Below, one piece after another: positions 16,601-56,805 of a DNA stretch of 57,007 bases. A program made the translations under genes and the position numbers. The stretch is from an uncultured Pseudomonadales bacterium (GTDB taxonomy: Bacteria; Pseudomonadota; Alphaproteobacteria; UBA2136; UBA6156). The first letter of the stretch is position 1; every line of letters begins with the position of its first letter. The stretch is from the NCBI GenBank assembly GCA_964601735.1, contig CAZROO010000005.1:1-57007 (forward strand), read 5' to 3'. The notes under the pieces were generated by a model. It had not been told where the DNA came from. It made no database searches and was given only the letters and a program-made list of their open reading frames with translations.

Positions 16601-17720
16601 AGCCATCCTCCCCAGCCTGAGCGCCCCGCGCCGCGCCGGCCCCACCATCGGATTCTATCTCGCCCGCCGTTTTGCCTGGACGCTGTTCTTCGTCATGCTC
16701 GGCCTCACCGCGCTTATATACGTCATCGACACGCTTGAAATGCTGCGCCGCCTCGGCAACCACAACATCGGGGCTTCCGTCGCGCTTAAAATGAGCCTGT
16801 TCCGCCTGCCCGACTTGGCGCTGACCCTGCTGCCCTTCGTCGTCCTGCTGGCCACGCTCGCGCTGCTCCGGCAACTTACCCGCAATTCCGAAATCATTAT
16901 CCTCCGCGCCGCAGGCCTGCCTACCTGGCGCCTGCTCAACGGCCCGGTGACGGTCATCCTGCTCACCGGCATGCTGGCGCTGTTCATCGGCAATCCGCTG
17001 GCGGCCACCATGCTCAAGCGGTACGAAAGCTGGCAGGCCGAAAACCTGCCCGGCAGCACCAAGGGGGTGGTCACGGCGGGGGGCACCATCTGGCTCAAGC
17101 AACGGCAGGAAGACCACGATTTCTTCATCACCGCGCGCGAGGCCCAAAGCAATGGCGCCTTACTCAAGGACGGCACCGTCTTCCTCTTCAGCCCCAAGGG
17201 CGATTTCCAGGCCCGACTGGACGCCGATACCATCACGCTGGAACCCGGTCTCTGGCACCTTAACAACACCACGCTGCTGCAACCCAACCAGCCGGTAAAG
17301 CACGAAGATTCCGTCACCATCCCCACCGACCTGACCCCGCAGGTCATCCAGAGCAGCTTCCACCCCGCGGGCACGCTCACCTTATGGGAACTCAACCGCT
17401 TCATCGATATCCTGCGCGAAACCGGCTTCCCCAGTAGCGCGCACGAAATGCAATTCCAGCGCCTGCTCGCCCTGCCCGCGCTGCTCTTCGCCATGTTCTG
17501 GCTGGCGGTGCCGTGGGGCCTGCGCAACGTACGCGGCGGCGGCGTCTGGCAACTGGCGGCAGCGGGCGTCGGCATGGGTTTCGGCTTTTATTTGCTCACC
17601 AACCTGTTCACTACTTTCGGCCTGGCCGGGCGCCTCAACGTGGTGCTGGCCGCCTGGGCCCCGGTGCTGGTGGCGGGCATGGCCGCCGCCGCCCTGCTCC
17701 TCGCCTGGCGCGAAGAATAG
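16593..17720 (+). CDS. lptG: LPS export ABC permease LptG
   Basis: SEIIILRAAG, GTIWLKQ, LAAWAP; overlaps the lptF stop. Confidence 0.9.
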   Translation: MSKAILPSLSAPRRAGPTIGFYLARRFAWTLFFVMLGLTALIYVIDTLEMLRRLGNHNIGASVALKMSLFRLPDLALTLLPFVVLLATLALLRQLTRNSEIIILRAAGLPTWRLLNGPVTVILLTGMLALFIGNPLAATMLKRYESWQAENLPGSTKGVVTAGGTIWLKQRQEDHDFFITAREAQSNGALLKDGTVFLFSPKGDFQARLDADTITLEPGLWHLNNTTLLQPNQPVKHEDSVTIPTDLTPQVIQSSFHPAGTLTLWELNRFIDILRETGFPSSAHEMQFQRLLALPALLFAMFWLAVPWGLRNVRGGGVWQLAAAGVGMGFGFYLLTNLFTTFGLAGRLNVVLAAWAPVLVAGMAAAALLLAWREE

Positions 17721-17795
17721 GGTCAAAGGACAATAGCTCACAGGCAAAAAATTTTATCGCCTGCAATCCTGTCACCCTGTTAGCCTGTAATCCTT
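17718..17795. repeat. Octamer arrays between lptG and lptD
   Basis: Degenerate left arm from the lptG stop (TAGGGTCA-AAGGACAA..CAGGC); right arm GCCTGCAA-TCCTGTCA-CCCTGTTA-GCCTGTAA-TCCTT. Confidence 0.65.
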
Positions 17796-17804
17796 GCTAG
17801 GCGC

Positions 17805-20039
17805 TTGACGCCACCCCATTCCACCATCCATTGTCGGCCCTGGAAAAAGAGCCCGCCCCTGTACCGCATTTTGGCCCTGTTAGCGTTATTCGCCATCCCC
17901 GCGGCCTGGGCCCAAACCACAGCGCCTGTTTCCGGCACCCAAGCCAAGTCTCCCCAACCCTTCGACCTCGACGCCGACACGGTAAGCTACGAAAGCTCAC
18001 CCACCCGCATCGTCGCCCGCGGCAACGTGGTGGTCAGCAGCTCCGACGGCCGCCTGCAAACCCCCGAACTCACCTATTATTCCGATACGGGCCGCGTACT
18101 GGCTTCCGGCGGCGTCACCTATACCAACCCCTCCAACCAGGTACTCACCGCCCAAACGCTCGAACTCACCGACAAATTCCGCCAGGGCGCCGCCGACAAG
18201 CTCACCATGTCGGTGCCGCAACTCGGCCAGATTCTCACCGCCCAAACCGCCACCAAACTCAGCCCCACCGAATATCAATTGAACCACGCCACCTACAGCC
18301 CGTGCCGCACCTGCCCGGGCGAAAGCAAACCCTGGTCGGTCAGCGCCCAAACCGTGACGTACGACACCTCCGAAAGCAAGGTCACCTACCGCAACGCCGT
18401 CTTCAAGGTCAAAGACACCCCCATCATGTACCTGCCCTATTTCAGCAACAGCGTAGGCCCCAAACAACCCAAAAGCGGCCTATTGTTACCAACCGTCGGC
18501 CACTCCTCCAATAAAGGCTTCATGGTCGGCGAACGCTATTACATCTGGAACCCGCGCGAAAACGCCGATTACACCATCGGCGACACCTACATGAGCGCGC
18601 GCGGCCATATGCTTGCCGCCGAGCGCCGCCAGATTACCGACTACACGCAAAGTGAATTCCGCGGCAGCTTCATCAACGACCTCGACCAGAACTCCCGCCC
18701 GCGCGGCGATGTCCAGGGTATCTTCCAGCAGGTGCTCCAGCCCGGCCTGCGTGTCGGTTTCAATGCCGAGCGCGCCAGCGACCGCACCTACCTCAACGAA
18801 TACTTCGGCCGCACCGACCCCTATCTCGCCAGCACGCTCTACGGCGAAAGCGGAGCCGAAGACCACTACTACGCCCTCACCGCCACGCAGTTCCAGAACC
18901 TCAGCAGCACCATGCCCAACGGCAGCGCGTCGCAGGCCACCACCGCGCAAGTGCTGCCGCACCTCCAGCTCGAAAAAACCTTCAGCATGGGCGGCCGTGG
19001 CGACACCCTCAACCTCACCGGCGACTCCATCAACCTCATGCGCACCACCGGCACACGCTACCGCCGCATGATCGGCATGGCCGACTACAATAAGCCACTG
19101 CTGTTTGAAGACGGCAGCAAGCTCAACCTCGACGCCACCCTGCGCGGCGACTATTACAACGTCGATGGCCAAAATGGCCCTGGCTCCCAAAACGGCGATA
19201 CCTTCCGCGCCCTGCCGGAAGCCACCGCGCTCTGGAGCAAGCCCTACGTCTCGCCCGGCGGCTATCATACCATCGCGCCTACCGTCATGGGCGCCCTTTC
19301 GCCACGCGGGGGCAACCCTTCCGGTATCCCGAATGAAGACTCCGTCGGCTACGAACTCGACGCCGCAAACCTGTTCGAGCCCAACCGCTACGCCGGGCTC
19401 GACCGGGTCGAAACCGGCCCGCGCGTGGTCTACGGACTCGACAACCGCTGGGGTGATGCCAGCCACACCGACTGGCGCCTGTTCCTCGGCCAGGGCATCC
19501 GTAAATTCAACGACAACCGACTGCCGACCAACAGCGGCGCCGCCACCGCGGTAACCGACTGGATTGCCGCCGCCGAGGCCAACCCCACCAACTGGCTCAA
19601 TTTCCAAAACCAGCTCCGGCTCGATAATTCCGACCTCACCATCCGCCGCGCCGACACCAGCATGCGCATCGGCGAGTACAACAGAACCCGCCTCATCGTC
19701 ACCCACAGCTATCTCGACAACGGCCCCAACGAACTGAGCCTCGACTTCCAGTTACCCATCAACGACAACTGGTCGTTCCTCTCCCAGGCGCGCGAGGACA
19801 TCGCCAACAATACGCTGCTCGAAGGCACCGCCGGCTTCCGCTTCAGGGCTGACTGCTATCAAGTCGACCTGATGGCCAAGCGCAGCGGATACGAAAGTGC
19901 CGACCTCCACCCCAGTACCGACTACATCGTCAACCTCAAGCTGCTCACCTTCAACACCGGTGACGACAACGGCAACATCGGCGTCCTGCCCGGTGCCACC
20001 GATACCCGCAGCAGCCTCGACACCATGCCAAAACTGTAG
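17805..20039 (+). CDS. lptD: LPS assembly outer-membrane protein LptD
   Basis: LDADTVSY, ATYSPCRTC, IMYLPYF, SDRTYL, NEDS, DRVETGPR, ADCY. Confidence 0.93.
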   Translation: MTPPHSTIHCRPWKKSPPLYRILALLALFAIPAAWAQTTAPVSGTQAKSPQPFDLDADTVSYESSPTRIVARGNVVVSSSDGRLQTPELTYYSDTGRVLASGGVTYTNPSNQVLTAQTLELTDKFRQGAADKLTMSVPQLGQILTAQTATKLSPTEYQLNHATYSPCRTCPGESKPWSVSAQTVTYDTSESKVTYRNAVFKVKDTPIMYLPYFSNSVGPKQPKSGLLLPTVGHSSNKGFMVGERYYIWNPRENADYTIGDTYMSARGHMLAAERRQITDYTQSEFRGSFINDLDQNSRPRGDVQGIFQQVLQPGLRVGFNAERASDRTYLNEYFGRTDPYLASTLYGESGAEDHYYALTATQFQNLSSTMPNGSASQATTAQVLPHLQLEKTFSMGGRGDTLNLTGDSINLMRTTGTRYRRMIGMADYNKPLLFEDGSKLNLDATLRGDYYNVDGQNGPGSQNGDTFRALPEATALWSKPYVSPGGYHTIAPTVMGALSPRGGNPSGIPNEDSVGYELDAANLFEPNRYAGLDRVETGPRVVYGLDNRWGDASHTDWRLFLGQGIRKFNDNRLPTNSGAATAVTDWIAAAEANPTNWLNFQNQLRLDNSDLTIRRADTSMRIGEYNRTRLIVTHSYLDNGPNELSLDFQLPINDNWSFLSQAREDIANNTLLEGTAGFRFRADCYQVDLMAKRSGYESADLHPSTDYIVNLKLLTFNTGDDNGNIGVLPGATDTRSSLDTMPKL

Positions 20040-20053
20040 CCTGGCAGGCAGCA

Positions 20054-20078
20054 AAAAGGCCCCTCAACAGGGCCTTTT
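20054..20078. terminator. Bidirectional terminator
   Basis: AAAAGGCCC...GGGCCTTTT between convergent genes. Confidence 0.8.
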
Positions 20079-20089
20079 CAATATCGAAA

Positions 20090-20587
20090 TCAGGCCAGCA
20101 AACGTTGGCGCAGGTTATGGCACAAGGCATCCAACGTCGGAGCAATGCCACCCTGGTTCCCAAAACAATATTCCACCTGAAGGTTCACTATCGAACCGAT
20201 ATTATCGGCACTGAGCCTGAAATCCCCCCGGTAGCCATACAGCTTTTTACCTTTGGCATACGCATAGCCCACTTCGCAGGCCGTGCCGCTATCAACATCC
20301 GTACCGTCAAGCACCGCTACAACGGCTTGGGATGAATCAATCGCCTCAAAGTTGGTTTTGGCAATCTGCCGGTTCAACGTCTGCCACCGGTTTCGCTGTT
20401 CCGGGCCAAACGGCAAGGCATTTGCTTCTTCAACCGGTTTTTCATCGGTGAGGGTCCAGGGGTCCAGTAAATCCAGGCCTAGTTGACGCAACCGGGGTAA
20501 AAGAACGCCACTGTAGTAGTGGCGCCCGGCTTCACTAAATCCCAGAGGGCTGGCAACATATACTGTAGGCTTTAAAGCTCCGCTCAT
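20090..20587 (-). CDS. Nucleoside 2-deoxyribosyltransferase / N-glycosidase family protein
   Basis: VYVASPLGF, D..VVAVLDGTDVDSGTACEVGYAYAKGK, GDFR, NLQV. Confidence 0.88.
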   Translation of the reverse strand: MSGALKPTVYVASPLGFSEAGRHYYSGVLLPRLRQLGLDLLDPWTLTDEKPVEEANALPFGPEQRNRWQTLNRQIAKTNFEAIDSSQAVVAVLDGTDVDSGTACEVGYAYAKGKKLYGYRGDFRLSADNIGSIVNLQVEYCFGNQGGIAPTLDALCHNLRQRLLA

Positions 20588-20651
20588 CGGCGCTCCTTCA
20601 AAAGAGATGAGATCCCCTTCTCATACTCAATCAAATTGCCTTCCGGCAAGC

Positions 20652-21476
20652 TTAATTCACATCAATGACAAACGGGACAGTCACAACCTGCCCCTTATGC
20701 TTCACCTGCAGAAACAGCTTATGCATGCCACGCACTTGAGGCATCAGTTGAAAATTCAACACCGGCCCGCCGCGGTCATCCGGGCTTTCCGGTTCGGCCC
20801 CGCTCGGGTGCGCATGCATGATGGTCTCCAGGTTCCTGTCAAAACCCGCCAGGTGGGCATAAGACCCCATAATCGGCTCCAGGCTTGTCACCGGCAACCC
20901 ATCGTCGCTGTAGGTGTTCAAAATTGCCAGCGTGCCCTCACCCGCGTGCGGCGGCATCGCCAGGGTCAGGGTAAAACGCATACCGTCACCGCTGCCGGTC
21001 AGCACTTGCTCCTTGCCCAGCGCCGTCGGTTGCGGAACCACCCCACCCAGTTGCAACGGCACAAACTGGTCGTTGTCCTCCTTGGGTTTCACTTCCAGCC
21101 AAAGCTTGTAAGCTGCCCTTTGCGGCGTAAAACCCACCACCCATTCGCCGTCGCTCCGGCCCGGCACGGGGTGGAGGTGATGATAATCGGCCATGCCGCC
21201 ATCAATCGCAAACAGGTGCATCGGCTCGTCGTGGATAATCTCCACGTCCGCCGGACGTAATGGGCGGCCATATTTATCCTTTAATACCAGCGTCAGGCTC
21301 ACCGGCCTGCCGGGCACCAGCTCGCCGCCGTTGCTCACCGTGGCCCGCACCGTCGGACTGGCCGCCATACTCATCCCGGTCATACCCACCATGCCATGAC
21401 CGCCATCAGCCCATACCGCCAGCGGAGCCACCGGCAGCACAAGGCCCAGCGCTCCCAACATCCATAACCCACGCAT
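20652..21476 (-). CDS. Exported protein with duplicated His-motif domain (putative Cu/heavy-metal binding)
   Basis: Signal peptide, H/M-rich linker, two similar halves HDEPMHL..YHHLHP and MGSYAHL..IMHAHP. Confidence 0.7.
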   Translation of the reverse strand: MRGLWMLGALGLVLPVAPLAVWADGGHGMVGMTGMSMAASPTVRATVSNGGELVPGRPVSLTLVLKDKYGRPLRPADVEIIHDEPMHLFAIDGGMADYHHLHPVPGRSDGEWVVGFTPQRAAYKLWLEVKPKEDNDQFVPLQLGGVVPQPTALGKEQVLTGSGDGMRFTLTLAMPPHAGEGTLAILNTYSDDGLPVTSLEPIMGSYAHLAGFDRNLETIMHAHPSGAEPESPDDRGGPVLNFQLMPQVRGMHKLFLQVKHKGQVVTVPFVIDVN

Positions 21477-21492
21477 GGCGGCACCCTTCCTG

Positions 21493-21819
21493 TTAAAAAC
21501 TGCTGGTCGATATCAGAATTACCTGCTCGCCGGCCTTTACCAGCGGCAAGTGGCGGCGAATTTCCTCGTCCACGTAATCCTCGTCCAGCCGCTGGTGCGA
21601 ATCCGGCCGCAACCGCACCACGTTGCGCTGCAACTGGTCAATGTAGGCGTGCAAGTCGGTATTTTCGGCCTGTAACTGCTGTACCTGAACAGTCAGATGC
21701 TTCCACGTCACCACCCCGCGCTCGCCGTTAATCAGTTGCAACGTGGTGTACAGCAGCAGCAACCCCGCCGAAATCGGCAGCAGCAGCCTGTACATCCGGG
21801 GGGTGAAGCGAATCCGCAC
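21493..21819 (-). CDS. ftsB: Septum formation initiator FtsB/DivIC
   Basis: TM, then NGERG, coiled coil, LDEDYVDEEIR..L..GE. Confidence 0.85.
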   Translation of the reverse strand: MRIRFTPRMYRLLLPISAGLLLLYTTLQLINGERGVVTWKHLTVQVQQLQAENTDLHAYIDQLQRNVVRLRPDSHQRLDEDYVDEEIRRHLPLVKAGEQVILISTSSF

Positions 21820-32840: not shown

Positions 32841-33311
32841 TTAGAAATTCTCGCCTTCGGTCGGCGGGGTAAAGTCCTCACCACCTTCACCGGGCATGTC
32901 GGTGGTAAAGTCGATGCTTTCCCCGGCGTCGCCTTCAAAGGCCTCGCCATCTTCGCTCATTTCCATGGCACCGGCAGTGCTGTCGAACACCACGTCGTTA
33001 ATCGCGGCGGCGGTGGCATTGTTGGGCATTTCAATTTCACCCTGGGCGGCAATGGCCAGCAGGCTTTCATCTTCGGCAGAGAGGTCGTCGGTGCGGTTCA
33101 CGCCGTGGGCGATGTGCGCACGCAGGCTGTCCAGTTCAACCTTCTGGTCGGCAATCTCGCGCAAAGCCACAACAGGGTTTTTGTCGTTATCGCGTTCAAC
33201 AGCGATGGTACTGCCGCTGGCAATGTCGCGGGCACGCTGGGCAGCCAAAAGCACCAGTTCGTAACGGTTGGGAACGACTTCAATGCAATCTTCGACGGTG
33301 ACACGGGCCAT
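32841..33311 (-). CDS. rpoZ: RNA polymerase omega subunit with acidic tail
   Basis: [35 protein letters not shown]. Confidence 0.97.
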
Positions 33312-33373
33312 ATTGCGCTATTTCTCCACTTATCCTGCCCATTTAGGGTCTATTCCTCACCCTGTCAAGCGAG

Positions 33374-33447
33374 CAGGCGTCAGGAACCGGGTAACAGGTT
33401 ACAGGCTTAGCATTCCTGATATCTGTTTCCTGCCTCCTGTTACCTAG
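33374..33447. repeat. Inverted pair of degenerate heptamer arrays
   Basis: CAGGCGT-CAGGAAC-CGGGTAA-CAGGTTA-CAGGCTT opposite TTCCTGA-TATCTGT-TTCCTGC-CTCCTGT-TACCTAG; the last unit contains the stop codon at 33444-33446. Confidence 0.7.
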
Positions 33448-33908
33448 GAATTATTCACGCGAAGCGTGAATAATTCCCCCCAGCTCCCCTGAACCGCCCG
33501 CAGCGCCCCAATCAACACCACCGCTCCACGCGGCACCACCACTAAACCCGGCAAAACCGCCAGAATCGCCTCCACCATCAACCCCAGAACCGGGTTAAAA
33601 CCTTCCTTGTCGCCCTCAATCCCCACCCGCAGGCGCCCGGTGGCCTCCTTGGGCATGAACAGCACGTCAGCCCCGGCCTCGCGCACAATCGCCGCAATCC
33701 CGGGCGGCGGCACCGTGCCGGGCGCCAGCCGAACCGCCACCACCCGGTCGCAAAGCTTGGCCGCCTCTTTCAGCGCGCCAAGTTCGGCCGCCGTCGGCGC
33801 GGCAGAAACAAACCCCATCGCCCAACTGGTATCTGCTGTTTGCCCAGGCCAATTAGCCAGAACATCCGCCAGTTGATTCCGCGTCAGCGCAACAACAGCC
33901 TCAGCCAT
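33444..33908 (-). CDS. Degenerate pantoate-beta-alanine ligase (PanC)-like N-terminal domain lacking catalytic motifs
   Basis: MGFV...A.KLCDRVVAV, EAGADVLFMP and ILAVLPG track the PanC Rossmann domain; HxGH and the C-terminal domain are missing. Confidence 0.6.
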   Translation of the reverse strand: MAEAVVALTRNQLADVLANWPGQTADTSWAMGFVSAAPTAAELGALKEAAKLCDRVVAVRLAPGTVPPPGIAAIVREAGADVLFMPKEATGRLRVGIEGDKEGFNPVLGLMVEAILAVLPGLVVVPRGAVVLIGALRAVQGSWGELFTLRVNNS

Positions 33909-34025
33909 TAAAAGCCCCCAGGGCCAAAGGCCCCTTCATACAGCCATGCGAAGCATTCCTTTTTGGGCGAGCCCGCAGCGATTGGGGTTGGGGTCCCAAT
34001 CGCAAGAATGGCAGCGAGTCCACCC

Positions 34026-34063
34026 CCCTCTGAGCCTCTGACCCTCTCACCCTCTTATCCTTT
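34026..34063. repeat. Octamer tandem array across the smpB stop codon
   Basis: CCCTCTGA-GCCTCTGA-CCCTCTCA-CCCTCTTA-TCCTTT. Confidence 0.75.
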
Positions 34064-34549
34064 ACGTTTTCCGCCCTTGAAAATCCGGGCCACCTCTCGT
34101 TCAGACTCCCGCTTCTTGATGGTCTCACGCTTGTCCACGGTCTTCTTGCCCTTCCCAATCGCCAGCACCACCTTGGCAAAACCCTTCTTCCACACCAGCA
34201 TGGTCGGTACAATCGTCAGGCCCTGCTGCTCACGCGCCGCCCGCAGCTTCTTCAATTCGCTCTTGTGCAGCAAAATCTTCCGGCTCCGCCGCTCGTCATA
34301 GGGCTCGCCAAACCCGCCGCCCACCGGCTGCCCGGCATGCTTGTAGGGGGCGATATGCGCCCCGATAAGCCACAACTCCCCGCGGGAGAAACTCGCATAA
34401 GCCTCGTTCACCGTCGCACCGCCGTCACGGATGCTCTTGATCTCCGCCCCGGTCAGCACCAGCCCGCCCTCGTAAAACTCCAGTAACTCGTAATTGAACC
34501 GTGCCCGCCGGTTCTCGGTAATTACGTTGTCGCCACGTTTCTTTGCCAT
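34055..34549 (-). CDS. smpB: SsrA-binding protein
   Basis: NRRARFNYE, GLVLTGAEIKS, RSRKILLHK, GKGKKTVDKRETIK. Confidence 0.97.
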   Translation of the reverse strand: MAKKRGDNVITENRRARFNYELLEFYEGGLVLTGAEIKSIRDGGATVNEAYASFSRGELWLIGAHIAPYKHAGQPVGGGFGEPYDERRSRKILLHKSELKKLRAAREQQGLTIVPTMLVWKKGFAKVVLAIGKGKKTVDKRETIKKRESEREVARIFKGGKRKG

Positions 34550-34552
34550 AAT

Positions 34553-37500
34553 TTAGGCTTGTAACACGTCAGCGGCGGCGGCTTCCACCAGCTTTTCAAG
34601 CTCCTTCACCACCCACGCCACCACCTTCAACTGCGCATCCCCGGCAGGAATCGGCTTGTGCCAAACGAGAGCCTGCCCGTCCTTCTCCTGCCGCACCTGC
34701 AGCACGCCCGCGTTGTTGATGATATACGTCATCAGCTGCGGCGCCGCAGCAAACACGCCCTTGTGGAAAGCCACCACCACCCCGCGCTCGCCCACTTCCA
34801 GGCGCGAAATGTTCAGCGCCGCAGCCCGGTTACGCAACTCCATCACGTCCAGCAACCGCTCCACCTCGGCGGGCACGGTCCCAAACCGGTCGGCCAGCTC
34901 GCGGCGGAAGCCATCAATATCCTCCTTACCCTGCAGCCCGGCCAGCCGCCGGTACAGCTGCAACCGCACCGCCGCATCGCCCACATAATTGTCGGGAATC
35001 AGATATGTCACCCCCACCTTCAACGAAACATTGGGCCTTTCACTCTCTTCTTCCCTCTGACCCTCTGACCCTCTCATCCTCTGAGCCTTCCGGGAGGCGA
35101 CAGCCTCTCGGAGCATCTTGGCATAAAGCTCAAACCCGATATCCCGGATATGCCCGCTCTGCTGCTTGCCCAGCAAATTGCCGAAGCCACGCAAATCCAT
35201 ATCGTAACTGGCGAGCGTAAACCCGGCGCCCAACCCTTCCAGCCGCTGCAGAATCTCCAGCCGCTTGGCCGCATCCGCGCCCACGTGCGGCGGGAGGATG
35301 AAATACGCAAACGCCCGCGCCGTGCTCCGCCCCACACGCCCGCGCAACTGATACAACTGGCTCAACCCAAACCGGTCAGCCCGATACACAATCAGCGTAT
35401 TCGCCTTCGGCACGTCCAGCCCGCTCTCGATAATCGTGGTCGCCAGCAGCACATCCATCTCACCGGCATAAAAGTCGACCATAACTTTTTCCAGATCACC
35501 TTCCGCCATCTGGCCGTGCGCCACACCCAGCCGCGCCTCTGGCACCAGCGTGTTGATATCATTCTCCAGCTCGCTCAAATCCTCAATGTGCGGCGCCACC
35601 ACATACACCTGCCCGCCACGCCCCAGCTCGCGCCGAATAGCCTCCCGCAGCGTCACGTTGTCCCACGCCAGCACATGGGTCTGCACCGCACGCCTGTCCA
35701 CCGGCGGCGTCGCAATCAGGCTCAACTGGCGCACGCCGCCCACCGCCATCTGCAACGTGCGTGGAATCGGCGTCGCCGTCAGCGTCAAAACATCGCAACC
35801 GGCCTTTTTCTCCTTCAGCCTCTCCTTGTGCGCAACACCAAAGCGCTGCTCTTCGTCCACCACAATCATGCCGAGTTTCTTGAACTTCACATCACTCGAA
35901 AGCAGCGCATGCGTCCCCACCACAATGTCAATCTCGCCGCTCTCCAGGCCGGCCTTCACGCGCCGCGCTTCCGCCGCACCAACAAGCCTGCTCAACCCGC
36001 CCACTTGCATGGGAAAGCCACTAAACCGGTTGCGGAATACATCCAAATGCTGCCGCGCCAGTAACGTCGTCGGGCACACAATCGCCACCTGCCGCCCGGC
36101 TGCCGCCACCAAAAACGCCGCCCGCAACGCCACCTCGGTTTTGCCGAAACCCACGTCGCCCACAACCAACCTGTCCATCGGCGTGCCCAGCGCCAAATCC
36201 GCTTCCACCTCTTCCATCACCTGCTGCTGGTCGTCGGTCAGGTCAAACGGAAAACCCGCGCAAAACTCGTCATAAAGCCCATCAGCCCGGGCAACCGGAG
36301 GCCGCTGTACCAACTCACGCTCGGCGGCAATCGCCATCAAGCCATCGGCCATCTCCAGCAGGTCAACGCGGACTTTCTCCTTCCGCGCCTCCCAGCCGCC
36401 CGTCCCCAAACGGTCAAGCGTCACATTCTCCGCCTCACCGCCTTTGTACCGGCTCAGCACATCCAGGTTCGCCACCGGCACCAGCAACCGGTCATCGCCC
36501 GCATAAACCAGCCGCAGAAAATCCTGCTTCGTGCCACTACCCATATCCAGCGTAACCAGCCCGGCAAACTTCCCAATCCCGTGCTGTTCATGCACTACAA
36601 AATCGCCGTCATGAAGCTCACTGAAATGCGCAATAATCTCCTCCGGCGTCCGCCGTTTGCGCCGCCGCGCCCCACCCACCTTGCGGCCAAAAACATCCCC
36701 CTCGGCCACAATCATTTTCTTGTTGAGGCTATCCACCCACCCCGCCGCAAAAGGCGCAACCGCAGGCAGGATAATAGGGTGAGAAGATGAGAAGGCACGA
36801 GGAGTCAACGCTTCCGCTAACGTAATATCCTTCCTCTTATCCTCTAACCCTCTCAACCTCTCATCCTCGCCCGCAAGGGCGCGCATCAGTTGCTCCAGCG
36901 CGGGCTCGGTCGCGGCGGTCAGCACAACGCTCCAGCCATCCGCCAATCGCCGTCCAACTTCCTTCCCCGCCGCCTGCGCCGCTTCATGCCGGTTCCCGCG
37001 CGTCGCCAGCACCCAGCCGTGCTCACGCAACTGCGCATCGCCCACGCCCTTGTCGGCAAATCGGCTCACCACCAGTTGCGCAAATTTGCCCAAGCCGCCT
37101 TTCAGTTCCGAAGCCCCCACGCACAACGCCTGCGGCTCCACCGCCCGCAAAGCGGCAGACTCTCCCCGCGCCGCATGCGCTTCGCGTACGCTCTCTTCCC
37201 ACAGGTCGGCCAGCTCACCCAAACTGTCGGGCACTATAATAAGAGAATCATCCGGCAACAGGTCGGCAAACGCGGGCAGCGCCTCCTCATAAAACAGCGG
37301 CAATAACTGCGCGGCATAAGGCGGCATCTGCCCGGCGCTCACCATCGCATAGGCTTCGTCGTCGGTGGCCTCGGCGCCAAACGCCTCACGGTACTGGCGG
37401 CGGAAAACCTCCATCCGGCCGTCATCCAGCACCGCCTCGCGCACCGGCGCAATCCGCCACACCTTGGCCCCGGCACCCGGCGTGCTGGTCTGCGTCGCCG

Positions 37501-41769: not shown

Positions 41770-44811
<3,042 letters not shown>

Positions 44812-51424: not shown

Positions 51425-51772
51425 TTATGCCGCTATCAGGCGATTCAACGCCGCTTTCACCGCGTCGATGTCATGCACCCGGCTTACATTTGTATCCGTG
51501 TGCAAGCCGTGTTTACGGAGAGAGCCTTCATCGCCGGTCCACAGTAGAACCGGCAAGTTCGACTGCCAACCCCGCCGTATCTCGCGCCACAGGTCGGCAA
51601 CGGTTCCGTCCTGGTAAGTCTCGCTCGCCACGACAAAATCGTAGCGCTCGGCCCGAACCGCCTGCATGGTAGTGTGCACCTTGCCGCAGTCCTTTACCGC
51701 ATGCTCATTGCGCAGGGCCTTCTTAAGCTCCCAGCGCACCTTCCAGTCACCCAGTGCAATCAGAATCCGCAT
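51425..51772 (-). CDS. Stand-alone receiver-like (pseudo-receiver) domain
   Basis: MRILIALGD...RYDFVVAS...DLWREIR...LPVLLWT follows the REC topology; the phospho-Asp and conserved Lys are absent. Confidence 0.7.
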   Translation of the reverse strand: MRILIALGDWKVRWELKKALRNEHAVKDCGKVHTTMQAVRAERYDFVVASETYQDGTVADLWREIRRGWQSNLPVLLWTGDEGSLRKHGLHTDTNVSRVHDIDAVKAALNRLIAA

Positions 51773-51876
51773 AGCGGAACTCCCTATGAAATGTTTCGAT
51801 ACATCCTTACGAGGCCCATATAGGACAAAAAAGCACGGTTTCAAATAAAAAATGGGGTACCCCCTACCCCCGCTGG

Positions 51877-51949
51877 CCCACGTTGGCCCGGCGCACCAGA
51901 TCAAAAAGAAGAAGTCACCCGTAAAATCGCCGGGACAATGACGGGGCTA
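51877..51949 (+). repeat. Partial inverted copy of the structured element at 55340-55529
   Basis: Two blocks (17/18 and 21/22 identical) in the same order and with similar spacing as on the minus strand of 55451-55520. Confidence 0.75.
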
Positions 51950-52034
51950 TGGTTAGGCTACTCGGCTTTCTCCCAGCGACCTTACCTTGACCCCAAGCAG
52001 AATACACGTCCATCTCCGCTGCATGAAAGAGCGC

Positions 52035-52345
52035 CCCCGGCGCAGGCCGGGGTCTTGTCCGGGTAAATCGCTATAACACCGCCTATCCCCGGAAAATCGC
52101 AGCCACACAAATCCAATAAAAACGGCAGCCGCAAAATCCGCGATTTATCCGGGGTCTTATCCAGACAAGCCGCCATAAACACTGCCGTCATGCCACCCCC
52201 TTAGGGGGTAGGCATCCACGGGGGCGTGGTTATGGCAGAGCACCAACAAAGTCCTCCGTCATGCCCGCGCAGGCGGGCGCATCCAGGGGCTAAGCTCACA
52301 GGCCTAAATACTCACCGCCTCATCCTGACGCAGACCGGGATCCAC
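52035..52345 (+). repeat. Cluster of four REP-like palindromes
   Basis: CCCCGGC-GCAG-GCCGGGG (52035); GTCATGCC..AGGCATCCAC (52187); GTCATGCCCGC-GCAG-GCGGGCGCATCCAG (52258); CTCATCCTGAC-GCAG-ACCGGGATCCAC (52319). Confidence 0.7.
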
Positions 52346-52361
52346 CAGGTAACAGGTTTAC

Positions 52362-53912
52362 CTACTGCGAAGCCAGCAGCGTCATCGGGTCAACCGCCTG
52401 CGCCTGGCGGCGTAGCGCAAAATACAGCTGCGGCTTGTCCACGTTGCCGGTGGCACCACTCAGAGCAATCACCTGGCCCTTCTTGATCTCGTCGCCCTTG
52501 CTCACCAGCAGTTGGGTATTGTGGGCATAGGCGCTGAACAGGCCGTTGGCATGGCGGATAATCACCAGGCTACCATAGGTTTTCAGCCCGCTACCCGCGT
52601 ACAGAACGGTGCCGTTGTCGGTCGCCACCACCGGCGTGTTGGGCGGCACGGCAATATTAATGCCTTCCTGCTTCACGCCGCCGCCCTGGTTGCCGAACTT
52701 GCGAATCACCTGCCCGTGCACCGGCCACGCCAGCCCCTTGCTGCGGGCGGCCACCGGGTCGATCTTGCCCTTGTTGAAGGCGGCCTTCACCTCATCCACC
52801 GCGGTCTTGGCGGGCACGGGGTTCGCTTCGGCGGTTTCATCCTCCTCATGAGGCACCACCCGGGCAGACGCAGACGAGGCACTGGCAGAACCAGCTTCGG
52901 CGGTCTTCACCTGTTCATGCACCGGAACCTTCACCACCATGCCGCTCTTCAATTGCTGCGGCTGGCTGAAATTATTGGCGGTCATCACGTCCAACACGCT
53001 GGCGCCGTACGCATGTGCAATACGGTAAACCGTCTCGCCCTTCTTCACCGTGTGGTTCATCACCTTCACATCGTTGGCAGCGGGTTGGGCCGGGGCCTGC
53101 TTCTTCGGCCCGGCGGCGGGCTCGATACTGGCCATTTTTTCTTCAGCCGCGTCAGCGGCGGCCAACTCAACAGGCTTCACCACCTCGGCCTTGGTCTCGG
53201 CAGGGGCCATCGAACCCGTAGAACCACTCACCGGCGGCAGCAATTTGGGCGTTTGAACCAAAGGTGCACTGTTTTGTGCCAGTTGCGCATCATTTTGAAC
53301 CGTTTGCACACCGTTTTGCGATGCTGGAACGACACCCAAACGACGGTTGAGCGCCACCTGCGCATCACTCGGCGCGCCCGCCACCTTGGTGCCCGAGGGA
53401 ATCTCCAGGTTCTTGCCCACTACCAAATCGGCAGTGCTATCCATATGATTTGCTTTAAGAATTGCGTCCGGCGTGGTGTCATAGCGCCGCGCCAGGCGGT
53501 ACACGGTTTCGCCCGGCTGCACCACGTGCATCACAACCCCTTGAGAAACATCATGATTTTTACTCCAATCCTGCACCAGGCTCTGTTTTTCGGGTATCGA
53601 TGCCGCCGCCTTGGTCGGCTTGCTGGAGGGCCCAGATGCAGGGCTAATGCTTTGTAAATCCTCTTCTTTTACGCTAGATGGAGCGGTCTGGGCAGCAGGC
53701 TGGCTCACCGCCATGCTCCCCTCGCCGGCCTTGGCGCTCACCTCACGGGTAAGCGAAAAATGGCTGTTTTGCTGGGGTTCTTCACCAATACCCAGCACCT
53801 TGTTGCTATTCTGATAGCCGCTCACCACCGGCGCGGGCGTGGTCTGCGCGCACCCCACCAACATAAACATAACCCCGTAAATTATTGCTTTGTTGTGTAT
53901 TTTTTGCATCAT
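52362..53912 (-). CDS. nlpD: NlpD-like lipoprotein: two LysM domains plus M23 domain
   Basis: LVGC lipobox; HVVQPGETVY and HTVKKGETVY LysM; WPVHG..., EGINI, SAYAHN, QLYFALR (M23 lacking the Zn ligands, as in amidase activators). Confidence 0.9.
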   Translation of the reverse strand: MMQKIHNKAIIYGVMFMLVGCAQTTPAPVVSGYQNSNKVLGIGEEPQQNSHFSLTREVSAKAGEGSMAVSQPAAQTAPSSVKEEDLQSISPASGPSSKPTKAAASIPEKQSLVQDWSKNHDVSQGVVMHVVQPGETVYRLARRYDTTPDAILKANHMDSTADLVVGKNLEIPSGTKVAGAPSDAQVALNRRLGVVPASQNGVQTVQNDAQLAQNSAPLVQTPKLLPPVSGSTGSMAPAETKAEVVKPVELAAADAAEEKMASIEPAAGPKKQAPAQPAANDVKVMNHTVKKGETVYRIAHAYGASVLDVMTANNFSQPQQLKSGMVVKVPVHEQVKTAEAGSASASSASARVVPHEEDETAEANPVPAKTAVDEVKAAFNKGKIDPVAARSKGLAWPVHGQVIRKFGNQGGGVKQEGINIAVPPNTPVVATDNGTVLYAGSGLKTYGSLVIIRHANGLFSAYAHNTQLLVSKGDEIKKGQVIALSGATGNVDKPQLYFALRRQAQAVDPMTLLASQ

Positions 53913-53921
53913 ATCTCCCTC

Positions 53922-54509
53922 CTAAGATGCGTACTGCCACAGGTATTTGATGAGAATGAAAAACAGCAGCAAACCCAGCGAAATCGACATGGTCAACGCC
54001 GCCAAGTTACGTTCAATCCACTCCTTAAAGCGTGGCCCACCCCGCCATAAAAGCCAAGAAATAAGCCAAAAACGGGCACCCCGCGCAATCAGCGTTGCCA
54101 TTAAAAAGGCGGGCAGCTGGGCCCCCAACACACCGCTACCGATGGCCACCGCCTTGAACGGCAGCGGCGAGAACCCGGCAGTGGCGACAACCGCCACATC
54201 GTACCCCTGATACCAGGTTTTAAGGGCATAAAAAAAGCTCTCAAATCCATAACTTGCAGCAATCGGCTCAATGAAAATCCGGGCCACCAGATTACCCAGG
54301 ATATAGCCGCCAAGCGCACCCGCCACGCTGCCCAGCGTGGCCACCAGGGCGTAGCGGAAAGCCCTGTCCGGGTTGATGAGAGACATCGGCACCAGCAGCG
54401 ATTCAGCGGCTGCGGGGGCAAAGGCGGACTCGGCCATCGACATGAAAAACAAGGCATTTTCTGCCTGCGGTTGCTGGGCGTAGCCCGCCATGCGGTCTTT
54501 AAGAGTCAT
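53922..54509 (-). CDS. YqaA/DedA-family membrane protein
   Basis: SMAESAFAP...LLVPM, TLGSVAG, GFSPLPFK, ARGARF; start set at MTLKDR. Confidence 0.9.
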   Translation of the reverse strand: MTLKDRMAGYAQQPQAENALFFMSMAESAFAPAAAESLLVPMSLINPDRAFRYALVATLGSVAGALGGYILGNLVARIFIEPIAASYGFESFFYALKTWYQGYDVAVVATAGFSPLPFKAVAIGSGVLGAQLPAFLMATLIARGARFWLISWLLWRGGPRFKEWIERNLAALTMSISLGLLLFFILIKYLWQYAS

Positions 54510-54728
54510 ACGATGGGCAGTATACCATTGGAATTTACAAGGCCCACCACGGGCCAGGACAAAGCGTGCGGAAGTGATGCAGCACTGTCGCAGTATTGTC
54601 GGTCCGGCGTGCACGGCTGTCGGTTTTACTCCCGTAAATGTGCGCAACCGGCGCGAAAGTGTCGCAGCCTTGTCATTTTATGAAAAAAATGCGCCGGAGA
54701 GAGCCCGGCGCGGTCGCGATGGTTGGGT

Positions 54729-55214
54729 TTACACTGGTAGAGAAGACAACTTTGGCACCTTGTGCTCGGCGATGATCATGTCTGCCGACCAGGGCTGCCC
54801 CCAGACGTTCATTCCACCGGGTGTGAAGCGGGTACACCGGATGTTCTTCACCAGAACCTGGCGAGGCTGACCGGGAGTGTGAAGCACCAGGCCGCGCAGC
54901 CCACCTCCGTCGATGGGATCAGCCGGTGGGCATTCCAGCCACGAGAGCATGGGAGGATATTCCCGGCCCTCCATTGACAGTGGCGTATGCAACTTGAACC
55001 AGTGAATGGGCCTGCCATCCTTTTCGGTTTTTTCCTCTTGAACAAAGTGGGGACTGCCACGGAGCCGCAAGAGCTGAGCCTGGTGTTCATCCACCGTACA
55101 CCCGCGCCAGACCAGGTGGCTGGGAACAGCGGAAGTTAAGGACGTCGGCAGGTTGTACATGCAGACATTGAAAGCCGCGCCGAGGGTGCGGCGGAACGAT
55201 TCAGCGAAGTCCAT
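54729..55214 (-). CDS. YecM-like VOC-family protein
   Basis: HLVWR..., DGRPIHWFKLHTPL..., WLECPP resembles the YecM GRPI.LFKL..PL...ELP.P pattern. Confidence 0.6.
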   Translation of the reverse strand: MDFAESFRRTLGAAFNVCMYNLPTSLTSAVPSHLVWRGCTVDEHQAQLLRLRGSPHFVQEEKTEKDGRPIHWFKLHTPLSMEGREYPPMLSWLECPPADPIDGGGLRGLVLHTPGQPRQVLVKNIRCTRFTPGGMNVWGQPWSADMIIAEHKVPKLSSLPV

Positions 55215-55339
55215 AAGGAATCCTTGGGGTAAGAGCGGTGATTGGAAAAAGGGAGAAGTAGTTCACGCCTGTATAACGCCGCACCGTTTTTAACGGAACC
55301 CCCTCGCCCAACAACCGGGCCAAAAAGAGGGCCGCTATT

Positions 55340-55529
55340 TCCGCCTGCCCCCACGTTGGCCCGTACCCACCGAAGCGGGTGGGGGAGCCCAAGTGAACGC
55401 AAGGCCGGCGTCGGGGTTATACGGGCGGCATGGGCACCATTCGCAAGTCGTAACCCCGTCATTGTCCCGGCGGGCAACGGCATTGATCTCCCCTGTTTCC
55501 GGGCGCCGGGCCAACGCGGGGCAGGCGGA
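55340..55529 (-). ncRNA. Rod-shaped structured RNA candidate, 6S RNA-like
   Basis: 22-bp closing stem with G.U pair, internal stems GGGGAG/CTCCCC, GCCGG/CCGGC and CGGGGTTA/TAACCCCG, central internal loop, cUUCGg side hairpin on the minus strand. Confidence 0.55.
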
Positions 55530-55576
55530 GGTTTTTTCATACGTATTACCTAAATAAAGAACCGCCTGTTAACAAA

Positions 55577-55602
55577 GAAAACCGGCCTTGCGGCCGGTTT
55601 TC
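55577..55602 (-). terminator. Terminator after pal
   Basis: GAAAACCGGCC-GCAA-GGCCGGTTTTC (minus strand). Confidence 0.88.
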
Positions 55603-55615
55603 CAAATCTGCAGAA

Positions 55616-56128
55616 CTATTGCAGCACGAGCACGCCGCGGCGGTTCTTGCCCCAGCAGGCTTCGTTGTGTTCGTCGCAGGTCGGACGTTCCTTACCGTAG
55701 CTCACGGTGTTGAACTGGCCGGCGTCCATGCCCAGGCCCACCAGGTAGCGCTTCACGCTCACGGCGCGGCGGTCGCCCAGGGCCAAGTTGTATTCGCGGG
55801 TGCCGCGTTCGTCGGCGTGGCCTTCGATCGTCACGCCCTTGACGCCGTTATCCTTGGCGAAGGAAGCGAATTTTTGCAGGGTGCCTTGGGCATCACCGCG
55901 GATATCGGACTTATCGTAGTCGAAGTAGACGATGTTGAGGCCGCTGGAAGCAAACTTGCTCTTGACGTCTTCGGAGTTGGCGCCGGCGCCGTTGGCGTAT
56001 TCGCCGCTGCCGTACTTGCTGCCCTTGGCAACCGGGGCAACGTTCAAATCGGGGCTCTTGAGGCAGGAGCAGGCGGACAGAGCCGCAACAACCGCAACGA
56101 GGCCGGCCTTGGTGATGAGTTTGTTCAT
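55616..56128 (-). CDS. pal: Peptidoglycan-associated lipoprotein Pal (OmpA-like)
   Basis: LSAC lipobox; VYFDYDKS, EGHADERGTREYNLALGDRRA, VSYGKERP, KNRR. Confidence 0.95.
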   Translation of the reverse strand: MNKLITKAGLVAVVAALSACSCLKSPDLNVAPVAKGSKYGSGEYANGAGANSEDVKSKFASSGLNIVYFDYDKSDIRGDAQGTLQKFASFAKDNGVKGVTIEGHADERGTREYNLALGDRRAVSVKRYLVGLGMDAGQFNTVSYGKERPTCDEHNEACWGKNRRGVLVLQ

Positions 56129-56444
56129 GGGTACATACCTTCTGTTGTCTAATTTCGTCTGCCTTAAGGGCCTACAACCCGCCACGGGAACGGGTCTGAG
56201 CGCACCATAAGCACCACCGGCACGCTTGGCAAGGGTCTAAACACCCGCCTTTATGTGTTTTTTTCAAACGTGCATACCGGTTATGCAAGGGGCTGTGACA
56301 ATGTTGCCAAATGAAAGCTTGGTGTAAGCGAATAATGAGCCTGGGCGGCGTTTACAGGTTGTTTACGCGCGGCAACAGCTTCGGGTACAGCACCTTTACA
56401 GTGCTACCCTTAAACTGGTCTTATCAACAGAAAGGAACATGGCC

Positions 56445-56699
56445 ATGCAAAGGGTGGTAAAGAATGGAGTGATTTTGGCCATTGTCGCCGGGATCCTGGG
56501 CTTGGCGGCCTGCGGTGAAACCCAAAGCGACCGGGCGCTAAGTGGCGCCGGGATTGGTGCCGGTGTTGGTGCGCTGGGCGCCGCGGCACTGGGCGGTAAT
56601 GCACTGAGTGGTGCCGCGCTGGGCGGCATTGTGGGCGCCGGGACGGGCGCGCTGACCAGCCCGCGCGATATTGATTTGGGCGCACCGTGGTGGAGATAG
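56445..56699 (+). CDS. Small glycine-zipper lipoprotein
   Basis: LAAC lipobox; DRALSGAGIGAG..., LGAPWW; AAGGA RBS. Confidence 0.85.
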   Translation: MQRVVKNGVILAIVAGILGLAACGETQSDRALSGAGIGAGVGALGAAALGGNALSGAALGGIVGAGTGALTSPRDIDLGAPWWR

Positions 56700-56805
56700 G
56701 CTAACAGGGTCACAGGATAACAGGGTTACGGAAAAAGGGGGGCAGGAAAACCGCCTTTTCAGGCGGCTTTTCCTTCCTGTCACCTGTGACCCTGTTATCC
56801 TTTAA
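56697..56805. repeat. Octamer arrays flanking a terminator hairpin between convergent genes
   Basis: TAGGCTAA-CAGGGTCA-CAGGATAA-CAGGGTTA, inner GGAAAACCGCCT-tttc-AGGCGGCTTTTCC, then CCTGTCA-CCTGTGA-CCCTGTTA-TCCTTT. Confidence 0.75.

Follow-up and report, generated by a model that had tools for sequence, protein, structure and literature searches.

STRR of heterocystous cyanobacteria are built from the units CCCCA(A/G)T (STRR1), TT(G/T)GTCA (STRR2) and CAACAGT (STRR3). REPs lie in 3' UTRs, often a few nucleotides from the stop codon, and can stabilise mRNA or stall ribosomes (PMC12306157), while RPEs sit in frame in Rickettsia genes and add a hydrophilic peptide to a surface or linker region that tolerates it (PMC10969869). 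Here we describe short repeats that resemble each of these systems in part. They were found in a 57,007-nt stretch of DNA (hereafter the window) whose best protein matches are alphaproteobacterial MAGs and which holds the lptF-lptG-lptD and rpoZ-spoT synteny. Our scans confirmed that this short interspersed repeat family is real and non-random.

Unit and architecture of the repeats

Degenerate 7/8-mer tandem arrays had been proposed in the first-pass annotation of this DNA and are indeed present. A relaxed scan of the window identified 10 arrays at 7 loci with the unit CCT(C/G)TNAN (0.6 in shuffles), and a strict scan that required at least 3 units per array identified 8 of them, where 50 Markov shuffles averaged 0.2. 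TRF also returned period-8 arrays at 34026, 35053, 36832, 41786 and 56698. Each copy is made of 3-6 tandem units, spaced by 8 nt at six of the seven window loci and by 7 nt at element B alone. The loci, their adjoining features and one further pair just outside the window are:

17718..17800, no strand assigned: element A, fills the lptG-lptD spacer
33374..33446, no strand assigned: element B, inverted pair of ~7-nt units, from the stop of a 154-aa ORF to the rpoZ start
33447..33477, no strand assigned: perfect 14-bp palindrome, 100% complementary, adjoining element B
33909..34054, - strand: ~145-nt insertion, from the smpB stop to the next start codon
34027..34066, - strand: array C, 5 units, purine-rich on the smpB sense strand
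35047..35089, - strand: array D, single array in frame in the mfd CDS
36763..36872, no strand assigned: element E, 110-nt inverted pair in frame in the mfd CDS
41786..41843, + strand: array F, 5-7 units, pyrimidine-rich on the uvrA sense strand
56698..56806, no strand assigned: element G, fills the gap between two convergent stop codons
L246:13709-13810, just outside the window: pair H, 102 nt, in frame in a proline-rich secreted 480-aa ORF

The CCT core recurs in phase at 8 loci. The information content of the unit is 1.4-2.0 bits at positions 1-3, 5 and 7 and 0.1-0.35 bits at positions 6 and 8; neighbouring units vary at positions 6 and 8 and almost never at the six fixed positions, which are conserved alike in coding, non-coding, sense and antisense arrays. 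T-N-A occurs on both strands of the unit and, at period 8, samples all three frames, so an ORF entering an array stops at most 3 units in; among 205 arrays, the T-N-A that ended the ORF belonged to unit 1 in 14 cases, to unit 2 in 15 and to unit 3 in 11.

About half of the loci are inverted pairs of 70-110 nt, with the purine arm 5' every time. Inverted pairs had been proposed in the first-pass annotation, and of the four in the window three form long imperfect hairpins (z = -5.6 to -8), as does pair H (z = -3.8); the purine arm at lptG is weak and element A gives only z = -2.1. A single arm repeats its units in direct tandem order and has no internal dyad symmetry, and in all three single arrays the purine strand lies on the G-rich strand.

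In the DNA outside arrays, the 7-mer shows neither over-representation (11 observed on the + strand and 8 on the - strand, against 21.8 and 11.1 expected) nor any excess strand skew. We identified no transposase, reverse transcriptase or RAYT among the ~55 ORFs of the window, no master sequence in the ~65 kb of the genome examined for arrays, no clean target-site duplication at smpB and no Rfam family for the arrays. A 19-mer common to three arms had only 4 unrelated matches in a metagenome collection from which the window organism is absent.

Arrays after stop codons and inside genes

Five stop-codon contacts had been listed in the first-pass annotation (lptG, the 154-aa ORF, smpB, a Gly-zipper ORF and the last ORF of the window). 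All five are in the sequence, and wherever a flank faces the 3' end of a gene (5 of 5 cases) the gap is zero, which makes a targeted or constrained placement right after stops real. Anchoring at stops is not general, however, since 3 of the 7 window loci lie elsewhere, and the earlier list had missed the single array (35047-35089) and the pair (36763-36872) in mfd.

At lptG, the stop TAG (17718-17720) is directly followed by GGTCAAAGG. In element A the purine arm (17720-17746) is weak and is separated by an A/T-rich spacer from a pyrimidine arm of 5 units (17760-17800), which stops just short of a conserved CTTGACGCC (-35-like) motif. The 154-aa ORF ends on the - strand with TAG (33446-33444) and then GTAACAGG; element B again has its purine arm first and, together with the adjoining palindrome, folds with z = -6.25. 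This palindrome is made from the last codons of the ORF, whose C-terminus reads RVNNS-stop; that of relatives reads RLVD-stop or RMLA.., a difference from which we take the 3' half to be derived. The earlier label of this ORF, 'panC-like', was not borne out by Pfam, which gave no match even at E <= 5.

Array C forms the 5' end (- strand) of the ~145-nt insertion after smpB. Its outermost, degenerate unit overlaps the final two smpB codons and the TAA stop, and smpB ends in AAAGGATAA followed by GAGGGT. The last ORF (- strand) ends in AAAGGATAA followed by CAGGGT, a common ending that had already been pointed out. Judged from its translation this ORF is probably genuine, and a Pfam search of it gave no match. 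The non-array part of the smpB insertion has no second copy in any sequence searched, and two CCCCAA(C/T) heptamers lie near 33980-33995.

Element G begins at the Gly-zipper ORF, whose stop TAG (56697-56699) is followed by GCTAACAGGG, and has three parts: the purine arm spans 56698-56729, a terminator-like hairpin ~56741-56777 and the pyrimidine arm 56776-56806. Over their outer 19 nt the two arms are 95% complementary, and the folds of the element have z = -5.8 and -7.95. The enclosed terminator of the first-pass annotation corresponds to an A-run/CCGCC-loop-GGCGG/T-run hairpin between the arms, which at the level of consensus looks like a bidirectional intrinsic terminator.

Within mfd, array D encodes Mfd residues 1003-1017 (..AQRMRGSEGQREE..) in the D6-D7 linker, hardly changes the net length compared to homologues (alignment A1) and has a pLDDT of 41-54 in an AF2 model. 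Element E encodes residues 408-445 (GEDERLRGLEDKRK..AFSSSHPIIL) with the purine arm first on the coding strand, brings a net gain of ~13 aa to a variable linker, folds with z = -5.58 and has a modelled pLDDT of 58-65 against 78-84 in its flanks. The Mfd linkers that hold arrays were already purine-rich. Pair H is read in the same frame as element E and the two encode similar peptides, GEDERxxGxEDKR (GEDERGKGSEDKR in H and GEDERLRGLEDKR in E). Array F lies directly 5' of uvrA Met25, and UvrA homology to solved structures begins at query residues 21-24 (PDB alignment); array F may be either an N-terminal extension of UvrA or its 5' UTR.

Conservation in the population, empty sites in relatives and counterparts in other phyla

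Relatives provided array-free versions of two sites. In L236, whose SmpB is 90% identical and of equal length, the smpB site reads ...AAGGGGTAG C ATGGCC..., that is TAG-C-ATG, with 1 nt between stop and start where the window has 145 nt; in L002 and in a P0002 contig smpB and the next gene overlap. In L225 (LptG 78% identical) the LptG C-terminus and stop position are the same and are followed by an unrelated 54-nt spacer. We found no arrays in 23 kb of the syntenic relative L002 or in 21 kb of L225. Alignment to relatives had been suggested for dating the insertions, and the empty smpB site dates one of them. The array copies are derived, while next to them the stop codons (at lptG and smpB) and C-termini are ancestral, the arrays having neither created nor moved these stops. 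As the orthologous genes of relatives do without arrays, the arrays are not needed for the termination of those genes. Comparison of the filled and empty smpB sites revealed no clean duplication, the flanks having diverged (10% at the protein level).

In a population sample of ~30 contigs the arrays are fixed and SNP-poor. Every covering contig has the same sequence at arrays A, C, D and E (10 contigs for A, 9 for C and 6 for D), with no copy-number variation in the 6-10 contigs available for each. Intergenic arrays have 2 SNPs and one 2-unit indel in 240 nt, against a SNP density of 0.0337 in intergenic DNA elsewhere and 0.0105 in coding sequence. The one population SNP of element B, at 33422, falls on a degenerate unit position; the non-array part of the smpB insertion has 6 variable sites. 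The indel removes 16 nt (2 units) from the left arm of element G, the long form being present in 4 contigs and the window and the short form in 5 contigs. After their gain the arrays appear constrained, and, if our reading is right, the empty smpB site and this constraint on 6 of 8 unit positions make the old question of the function and spread of STRR- and REP-like repeats testable in a new lineage. One contig ends inside an array and two others near array or palindrome positions, and arrays may break short-read assemblies.

Similar array pairs occur across many phyla with units that differ in sequence, and they are purine-first by 26:2; generic hairpins at the same loci gave 151:108. These pairs lie in divergent, tandem and convergent gene contexts (4, 7 and 4, respectively). 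Near-perfect arrays make up most of the 119 genome matches, and in viral contigs the pattern was present at 35 loci, while three permuted versions of it, used as controls, matched 22, 16 and 25. The fixed purine-first architecture, here and across phyla, is a prediction that any mechanism must meet. The 152 single arrays of other phyla favour neither orientation relative to their neighbouring genes (62 vs 51). Given this, the in-frame copies in mfd and another ORF and the opposite sense at the uvrA 5' end, strict polarity to translation termination finds no support as a property of the arrays in their own right. A purine-first inverted pair reads purine-first from both sides, so a polarity toward upstream genes is automatic.

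Origin and role of the arrays and comparison with known systems

We give somewhat better than an even chance to the reading that this lineage-specific family consists of REP/RPE/STRR-like short interspersed hairpin repeats which become established at sites able to accept an insertion. An activity recognising the 7-nt core would spread or build the repeats, and these would persist only at tolerant sites, which may be the position right after a stop in tightly packed operons, both flanks of an existing terminator, or in-frame positions in disordered protein linkers (Mfd and the proline-rich secreted ORF). Stop contact and purine-first polarity would then be by-products of tight spacing and of the fixed purine-to-pyrimidine pair architecture. 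Insertion into very tight gene gaps partly explains the stop-adjacent placement, and a dedicated translation-termination signal is not needed. Since the arrays are SNP-poor and conserve 6 of 8 positions, they probably either bind some factor or work as RNA hairpins by analogy with post-stop REPs, and they may affect the RNA, for instance by protecting 3' ends or by stalling ribosomes as REPs do. A classical copy-and-paste MITE finds no support, because the spacers and other non-array parts of the elements are unrelated to one another and the degenerate positions of the arms resemble each other no more than by chance.

Several observations sit uneasily with the settling of repeats at tolerant sites. 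Counting against it, neither a mobilising enzyme nor a clean target-site duplication nor a master sequence was found in the sequence covered here. The arrays at lptG-lptD and in the Mfd linkers look like sequence replacement with little net length change, which a simple insertion model does not predict, and lack of space forces a zero gap at smpB only, the lptG relative having a 54-nt spacer. Low array SNP density points to function, and a purely selfish reading leaves it unexplained; nor does the favoured explanation account for the 6/8 conservation or the 26:2 purine-first bias. A general rule that is decidedly unlikely on present data would address that bias: arrays of 7-8-nt units in many phyla would form inverted pairs in which, on either strand, the G/purine-rich arm nearly always lies 5' of the dyad, an arrangement that would imply dedicated writing or reading machinery. 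Candidates might be the addition of one unit after another to 3' ends at a central break or hairpin, or a ring- or filament-forming protein with a step of 8 nt. If true, the rule would count against transposition or slippage as the source of the arrays.

It is unlikely, in our judgement, that a purine array after the stop was itself selected as an RNA element, as the first-pass annotation proposed, whether single or as the 5' arm of a hairpin. Such an element would make terminating ribosomes pause or stall, shield the 3' end of the mRNA or serve as a protein-binding site. The zero gap at all five flanks facing gene 3' ends favours this proposal, as do the ~4 times slower evolution of intergenic arrays relative to other intergenic DNA and the stalling of ribosomes by REPs at most 15 nt from the stop (PMC12306157). 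At element G, moreover, the arms lie outside a canonical terminator; if transcripts end there, each convergent mRNA would keep only its own purine arm, as a single-stranded array. The proposal does not fit the in-frame arrays in mfd and the 480-aa ORF, the pyrimidine sense at the uvrA 5' end, the array-free smpB and lptG orthologues or the loss of 2 of ~4 units from the element G purine arm in half of the population contigs. Neither the unbiased single arrays of other phyla nor the spread of pairs over all three gene contexts would be expected from it.

Still less likely is a DNA-level role, in which a nucleoid-associated, recombination or end-protection protein would read the 7-bp core at 8-bp spacing and pairs would point to their centre, as Chi and KOPS point toward a break or dif. 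Equal conservation of six positions in every sequence context and the population constraint both suit DNA binding, and purine-first pairing means that the G-rich 3'-ended strand runs to the centre (26:2 across phyla), with the purine strand lying on the G-rich strand in 3/3 single arrays. Yet the 7-mer is scarce outside arrays, in contrast to Chi or KOPS, successive sites 8 bp apart fall on different helix faces, no candidate protein was found among the window ORFs and unit sequences differ in other phyla. We consider it very improbable that the arrays arose by microsatellite-like slippage in place, as contingency or simple-sequence loci without dispersal or function. C/T-rich octamer repeats are generic, as the viral contigs illustrate, near-perfect arrays dominate the genome matches, a whole-unit indel of 16 nt segregates at element G and the Mfd linkers were purine-rich beforehand. 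Slippage followed by neutral decay would nevertheless distribute changes evenly rather than almost only at positions 6 and 8, and slippage does not readily yield one core in phase at 8 loci, 145 nt inserted at smpB, constant copy number at A, C, D and E or in-frame arrays in housekeeping genes.

For annotation, the arrays lengthen or cap ORFs at T-N-A positions and add peptides to proteins such as Mfd.

Among known systems, MITEs are defined by terminal inverted repeats and an internal sequence shared by descent from a parent IS, a combination that was not seen here, and the 7-mer lacks the single-copy over-representation and replication skew of Chi and KOPS. The resemblance to STRR noted in the first-pass annotation is supported at the level of repeat type: both are dispersed arrays of a few 7-8-nt units, mostly intergenic, with some present in both orientations and able to pair. 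The unit here is mostly 8 nt, however, with no tandem heptanucleotide at 6 of 7 loci; CCT(C/G)TNAN is unrelated to the STRR1-3 units, two unit positions vary freely, copies also occur in frame in genes, and the host is an alphaproteobacterium rather than a heterocystous cyanobacterium. Like REPs, BIMEs and REPINs, the repeats are short, dispersed, often arranged as hairpin-forming inverted doublets (B, E, G and H), and fixed and conserved within the species. Each arm is a tandem array instead of a 20-40-nt imperfect palindrome, though, copies are defined by the unit and not by a common sequence, the ~55 window ORFs include no RAYT gene (Y1 transposase), and 3-4 loci are intragenic (D, E and H) or at a gene 5' end rather than extragenic. 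With RPEs and intragenic MITEs they share ~100-nt palindromic elements in frame in unrelated genes of an alphaproteobacterium (E and H), encoding similar peptides (GEDERLRGLEDKR and GEDERGKGSEDKR). This likeness concerns architecture; the arms here have an 8-nt periodicity, the internal sequences are unrelated between copies, and the genome is of free-living type, with 60% G+C and full LPS transport and repair gene sets. If our reading is true, one repeat family joins the tandem units of STRR, the post-stop hairpins of REPs and the in-frame insertion of RPEs, and an uncultured free-living alphaproteobacterium is the host of these combined traits.

An octamer repeat family in a housekeeping region

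Read at the coordinates listed below, the repeated unit has the consensus CCT(C/G)TNAN on its pyrimidine strand and occurs in tandem. In 30 interior units the information content is 1.4-2.0 bits at positions 1-3, 5 and 7, 0.9 bits at position 4 (C or G) and 0.1-0.35 bits at positions 6 and 8. A strict scan of the window (5 or more of the 6 fixed positions, three or more units, spacing 7-9) returned 8 arrays, compared with 0.2 on average in shuffles; a relaxed scan returned 10 against 0.6, and TRF independently called five period-8 arrays. The arrays are thus real and non-random, and the shuffles rule out chance or base composition as their source. The loci listed in the first-pass annotation are all present, but it missed the two within mfd (D and E).

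Elements A-G of tandem 8-nt units (7-nt at B) in the window; a pair has inverted purine-rich and pyrimidine-rich arms, a single has one arm
A, 17718-17800: pair, in the spacer between lptG and lptD
B, 33374-33446: pair of 7-mers, between a 154-aa ORF and rpoZ
C, 34027-34066: single, at the stop of smpB
D, 35047-35089: single, within mfd
E, 36763-36872: pair, within mfd
F, 41786-41843: single, at the 5' end of uvrA
G, 56698-56806: pair enclosing a terminator-like hairpin, between convergent genes

The window has a G+C content of 58-63% over 57 kb and is a housekeeping region of an uncultured alphaproteobacterium, with genes that include lptF-lptG-lptD, rpoZ-spoT, smpB, mfd, recG, ssb, uvrA and secDF. 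Alphaproteobacterial MAGs supply the best hits for Mfd and LptG, and the Mfd of contig P0002 is 69% identical to that of the window. GC skew is strongly negative, between -0.10 and -0.29, along nearly all of positions 1-57007 regardless of gene strand, and the + strand is C-rich across the entire window. Other repeats are also found here. An autotransporter gene (1184-3667) harbors many imperfect internal repeats of 27-45 nt (repeat-scan families D1 and D4-D8) which bear no relation to the octamer arrays. Two inverted segments of ~100 nt at 51873-51949 and 55451-55524, separated by 3.5 kb, have two well-conserved blocks in common (CGTTGGCCCGGCGC and CGCCGGGACAATGACGGGG) and flank an M23/LysM peptidase gene and its neighbours.

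We did not identify a transposase, reverse transcriptase or RAYT gene nearby among the window genes, and the non-array parts of the elements had no other copy in the sequences gathered. An Rfam search of the entire window at the gathering threshold, and of 33300-34120 at E <= 1, returned only a tRNA, which argues against a known RNA family. Because the degenerate unit positions agree between arms at chance level, recent copying of the arms from a single master is rejected. A MITE with conserved ends was likewise rejected: a 19-mer common to three arms gave only 4 unrelated matches in a metagenome collection, although this collection lacks the window organism and the result therefore says little on copy number. 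A Chi- or KOPS-type motif is also disfavoured, as the 7-mer shows no enrichment outside arrays (observed 11 and 8; expected 21.8 and 11.1). A search pattern made of four exact units matched over 119 genome loci spread across many phyla, most of the matches being near-perfect octamer repeats, and 35 loci in viral contigs against 22, 16 and 25 for three permuted controls. Such controls are nearly as frequent, which makes C/T-rich octamer repeats a generic feature and the common core a consequence of the search pattern, not a unit conserved across phyla.

Stop codons, pair orientation and folding

The first-pass annotation described arrays at or across the stop codons of five genes (lptG, a panC-like gene, smpB, a glycine-zipper lipoprotein gene and the last ORF), and all five contacts are present as written, as is the AAAGGATAA(G/C)AGGGT ending at smpB and at the last ORF. 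This last ORF has no Pfam match even at E <= 5; from our own reading of its translation, it is probably a genuine PsiF-like coding sequence. In the relative L236 (a Logan contig of the SRR31923983 lineage, with an SmpB of equal length and 90% identity) the smpB site reads ...AAG GGG TAG C ATG GCC..., that is, stop, 1 nt and next start. The window smpB has the same C-terminus (..RKG*), followed by 145 nt starting with array C and then the ATG, and in two more distant relatives smpB overlaps the next gene. The smpB site offered no other room for an insertion. The LptG of L225 (GCA_036261915.1; 78% identical) ends in ..LAWREE, identical to the window, with the stop at the same place, and is followed by an unrelated 54-nt spacer and then by CTTGACGCC, a conserved motif; in the window, the distance from stop to CTTGACGCC is taken up exactly by 80 nt of array sequence. 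Given that relatives keep the same smpB and lptG stops, the arrays adjoin native stops and did not produce them. The suggestion that arrays are anchored at stops thus survives only in part: the contacts are real, but the stops are native, and arrays D and E lie in frame within mfd.

The smpB insertion also contains a hairpin at 33975-34000 (GCGATTGGGG...CCCCAATCGC) with two tandem CCCCAA(C/T) heptamers, which match the cyanobacterial STRR1 unit.

The unit itself supplies stops. T-N-A is fixed on both unit strands and 8 equals 2 modulo 3, so that three successive units offer a potential stop in every frame. Among 205 arrays from all loci gathered, ORFs (100 codons or longer) that terminate within an array do so at +1, +9 and +17 on the purine strand (14, 15 and 11 cases); on the pyrimidine strand the offsets are +4, +12 and +20. 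In each case this is the first T-N-A met in frame. Roughly 25 ORFs per strand, read from the offset list, terminate shortly before these arrays, with nearly equal numbers on the two strands.

The strict polarity relative to termination that had been proposed is not supported as a property of its own. All four pairs in the window are purine-arm-first, as is a fifth pair, H, and a purine-first inverted pair reads purine-first on either strand, so a gene entering from either side meets the purine arm. Of the three single arrays, C and D are purine-rich on the sense strand of their genes (smpB and mfd), and F is pyrimidine-rich on that of uvrA. UvrA is homologous to solved structures from residues 21-24 onwards, and native N-termini precede that point by 1-3 residues, so array F is either an N-terminal extension or 5' UTR. 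Among genome loci L005-L123 from many phyla, inverted pairs of 7-8-nt arrays are purine-first in 26 of 28 cases, and in 16 of 16 under a stricter unit-specific test, against 151:108 for generic perfect hairpins in the same loci; single arrays elsewhere are unbiased relative to neighbouring genes. The pairs are not bidirectional terminators in general, as they have no upstream A-run or downstream T-run on average and their gene contexts are mixed. The purine-first bias may perhaps arise from template switching, from addition to 3' ends at a break in the centre, or because exposed C-rich RNA is avoided (Rho loading).

Folding gives long but imperfect hairpins for pairs B, E and G (z = -6.25, -5.58 and -5.8/-7.95); A folds weakly (z = -2.1), and the single array C has no structure (z = -0.44). 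The outer 19 nt of the G arms are 95% complementary, and between the arms lies an A-run/CCGCC...GGCGG/T-run hairpin resembling a bidirectional terminator, in keeping with the earlier description of this site. Beside B, a perfect 14-bp palindrome (33447-33477; GGAATTATTCACGC TTC GCGTGAATAATTCC) is composed of the final codons of the 154-aa ORF. The 3' half of the palindrome alters the C-terminus (RVNNS* vs RLVD* and RMLA.. in relatives), which gives it the look of a foldback-type copy templated by the coding sequence of the ORF itself.

Population variation and in-frame copies

Comparison with relatives, which had been proposed for dating the insertions, shows that the L236 smpB site is empty and that no arrays occur in the syntenic regions of L002 (23 kb) and L225 (21 kb). 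Within the species, we compared ~30 contigs that are 97-99.4% identical, originate from JGI and SRA samples (a dozen or more), and span three window stretches (about 10.9-38.4 kb and 46-57 kb). Elements A, C, D and E are identical in all contigs that cover them. The density of segregating sites amounts to 0.0105 for coding DNA and 0.0337 for intergenic DNA outside the arrays; at the latter rate ~8 SNPs would be expected in the 240 nt of intergenic arrays, where 2 SNPs and one indel event were found (p ~0.01 by our own Poisson estimate). The 123 nt of arrays in or beside coding sequence have 0 variants, the SNP in B falls on a degenerate unit position, and the smpB insertion outside its array has 6 variable sites in 118 nt. 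The sole length change is a 16-nt (two-unit) indel between AACAGGGT direct repeats in the G purine arm, with the long allele in 4 contigs and the window and the short allele in 5 contigs. These data indicate that the arrays are fixed, appear to be under constraint, and slip only occasionally by whole units.

A 12-nt indel also segregates at the lptD 3' end (20038-20049; contigs L229 and L233). Contigs L001, L236 and L242, from this species and the 90% relative, end in or beside array C, array D and the palindrome with B, which suggests that the repeats break short-read assemblies and hints that the 90% relative may have arrays at D and B.

D and E are translated in frame as part of Mfd. In an 11-sequence alignment they occupy its two variable interdomain linkers, with a net length change of about +13 residues for E and almost none for D. 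An AF2 model of mediocre quality (mean pLDDT 71) gives 58-65 over E, 41-54 over D and ~80 in the flanks, pointing weakly to low-confidence linkers. Exact-protein look-ups reached ~8 kb past the right end of the window, and population contigs extending in this direction place pair H (L246:13709-13810; fold z = -3.8) ~3.5 kb beyond that end, in frame within a 480-aa proline-rich secreted ORF. The purine arms of H and E are ~85% identical over 46 nt and use the same frame; H encodes GEDERGKGSEDKR, a peptide close to the GEDERLRGLEDKR that E adds to Mfd.

Interpretation and known repeat classes

We lean modestly towards reading the arrays as lineage-specific short interspersed hairpin repeats of the REP/RPE/STRR kind, with an 8-nt unit. 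Such repeats would have been acquired since the lineage parted from its nearest sampled relatives and kept only where insertion was tolerated, namely in protein linkers, on either side of a terminator and, in tight operons, immediately behind a stop, making stop contact and polarity by-products. A dedicated post-stop RNA element would accommodate the five real contacts, but the lack of arrays at smpB and lptG in relatives and the in-frame copies in mfd count against it and we think it unlikely. Population constraint together with conservation at 6 of 8 unit positions indicates that the arrays are probably read or bound by something; that they are DNA-level binding arrays seems to us quite doubtful, and the 7-mer is not enriched outside them. 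Plain slippage products are the least probable explanation: the two-unit indel in G is a change of this type, but slippage is only occasional and the arrays are otherwise fixed.

Under the preferred reading of tolerated interspersed repeats, the most plausible secondary function would be a REP-like RNA role beside stops, for which REPs next to stops provide an RNA-level precedent (PMC12306157). The intragenic copies D, E and H, translated in frame, behave like the Rickettsia palindromic elements (PMC10969869).
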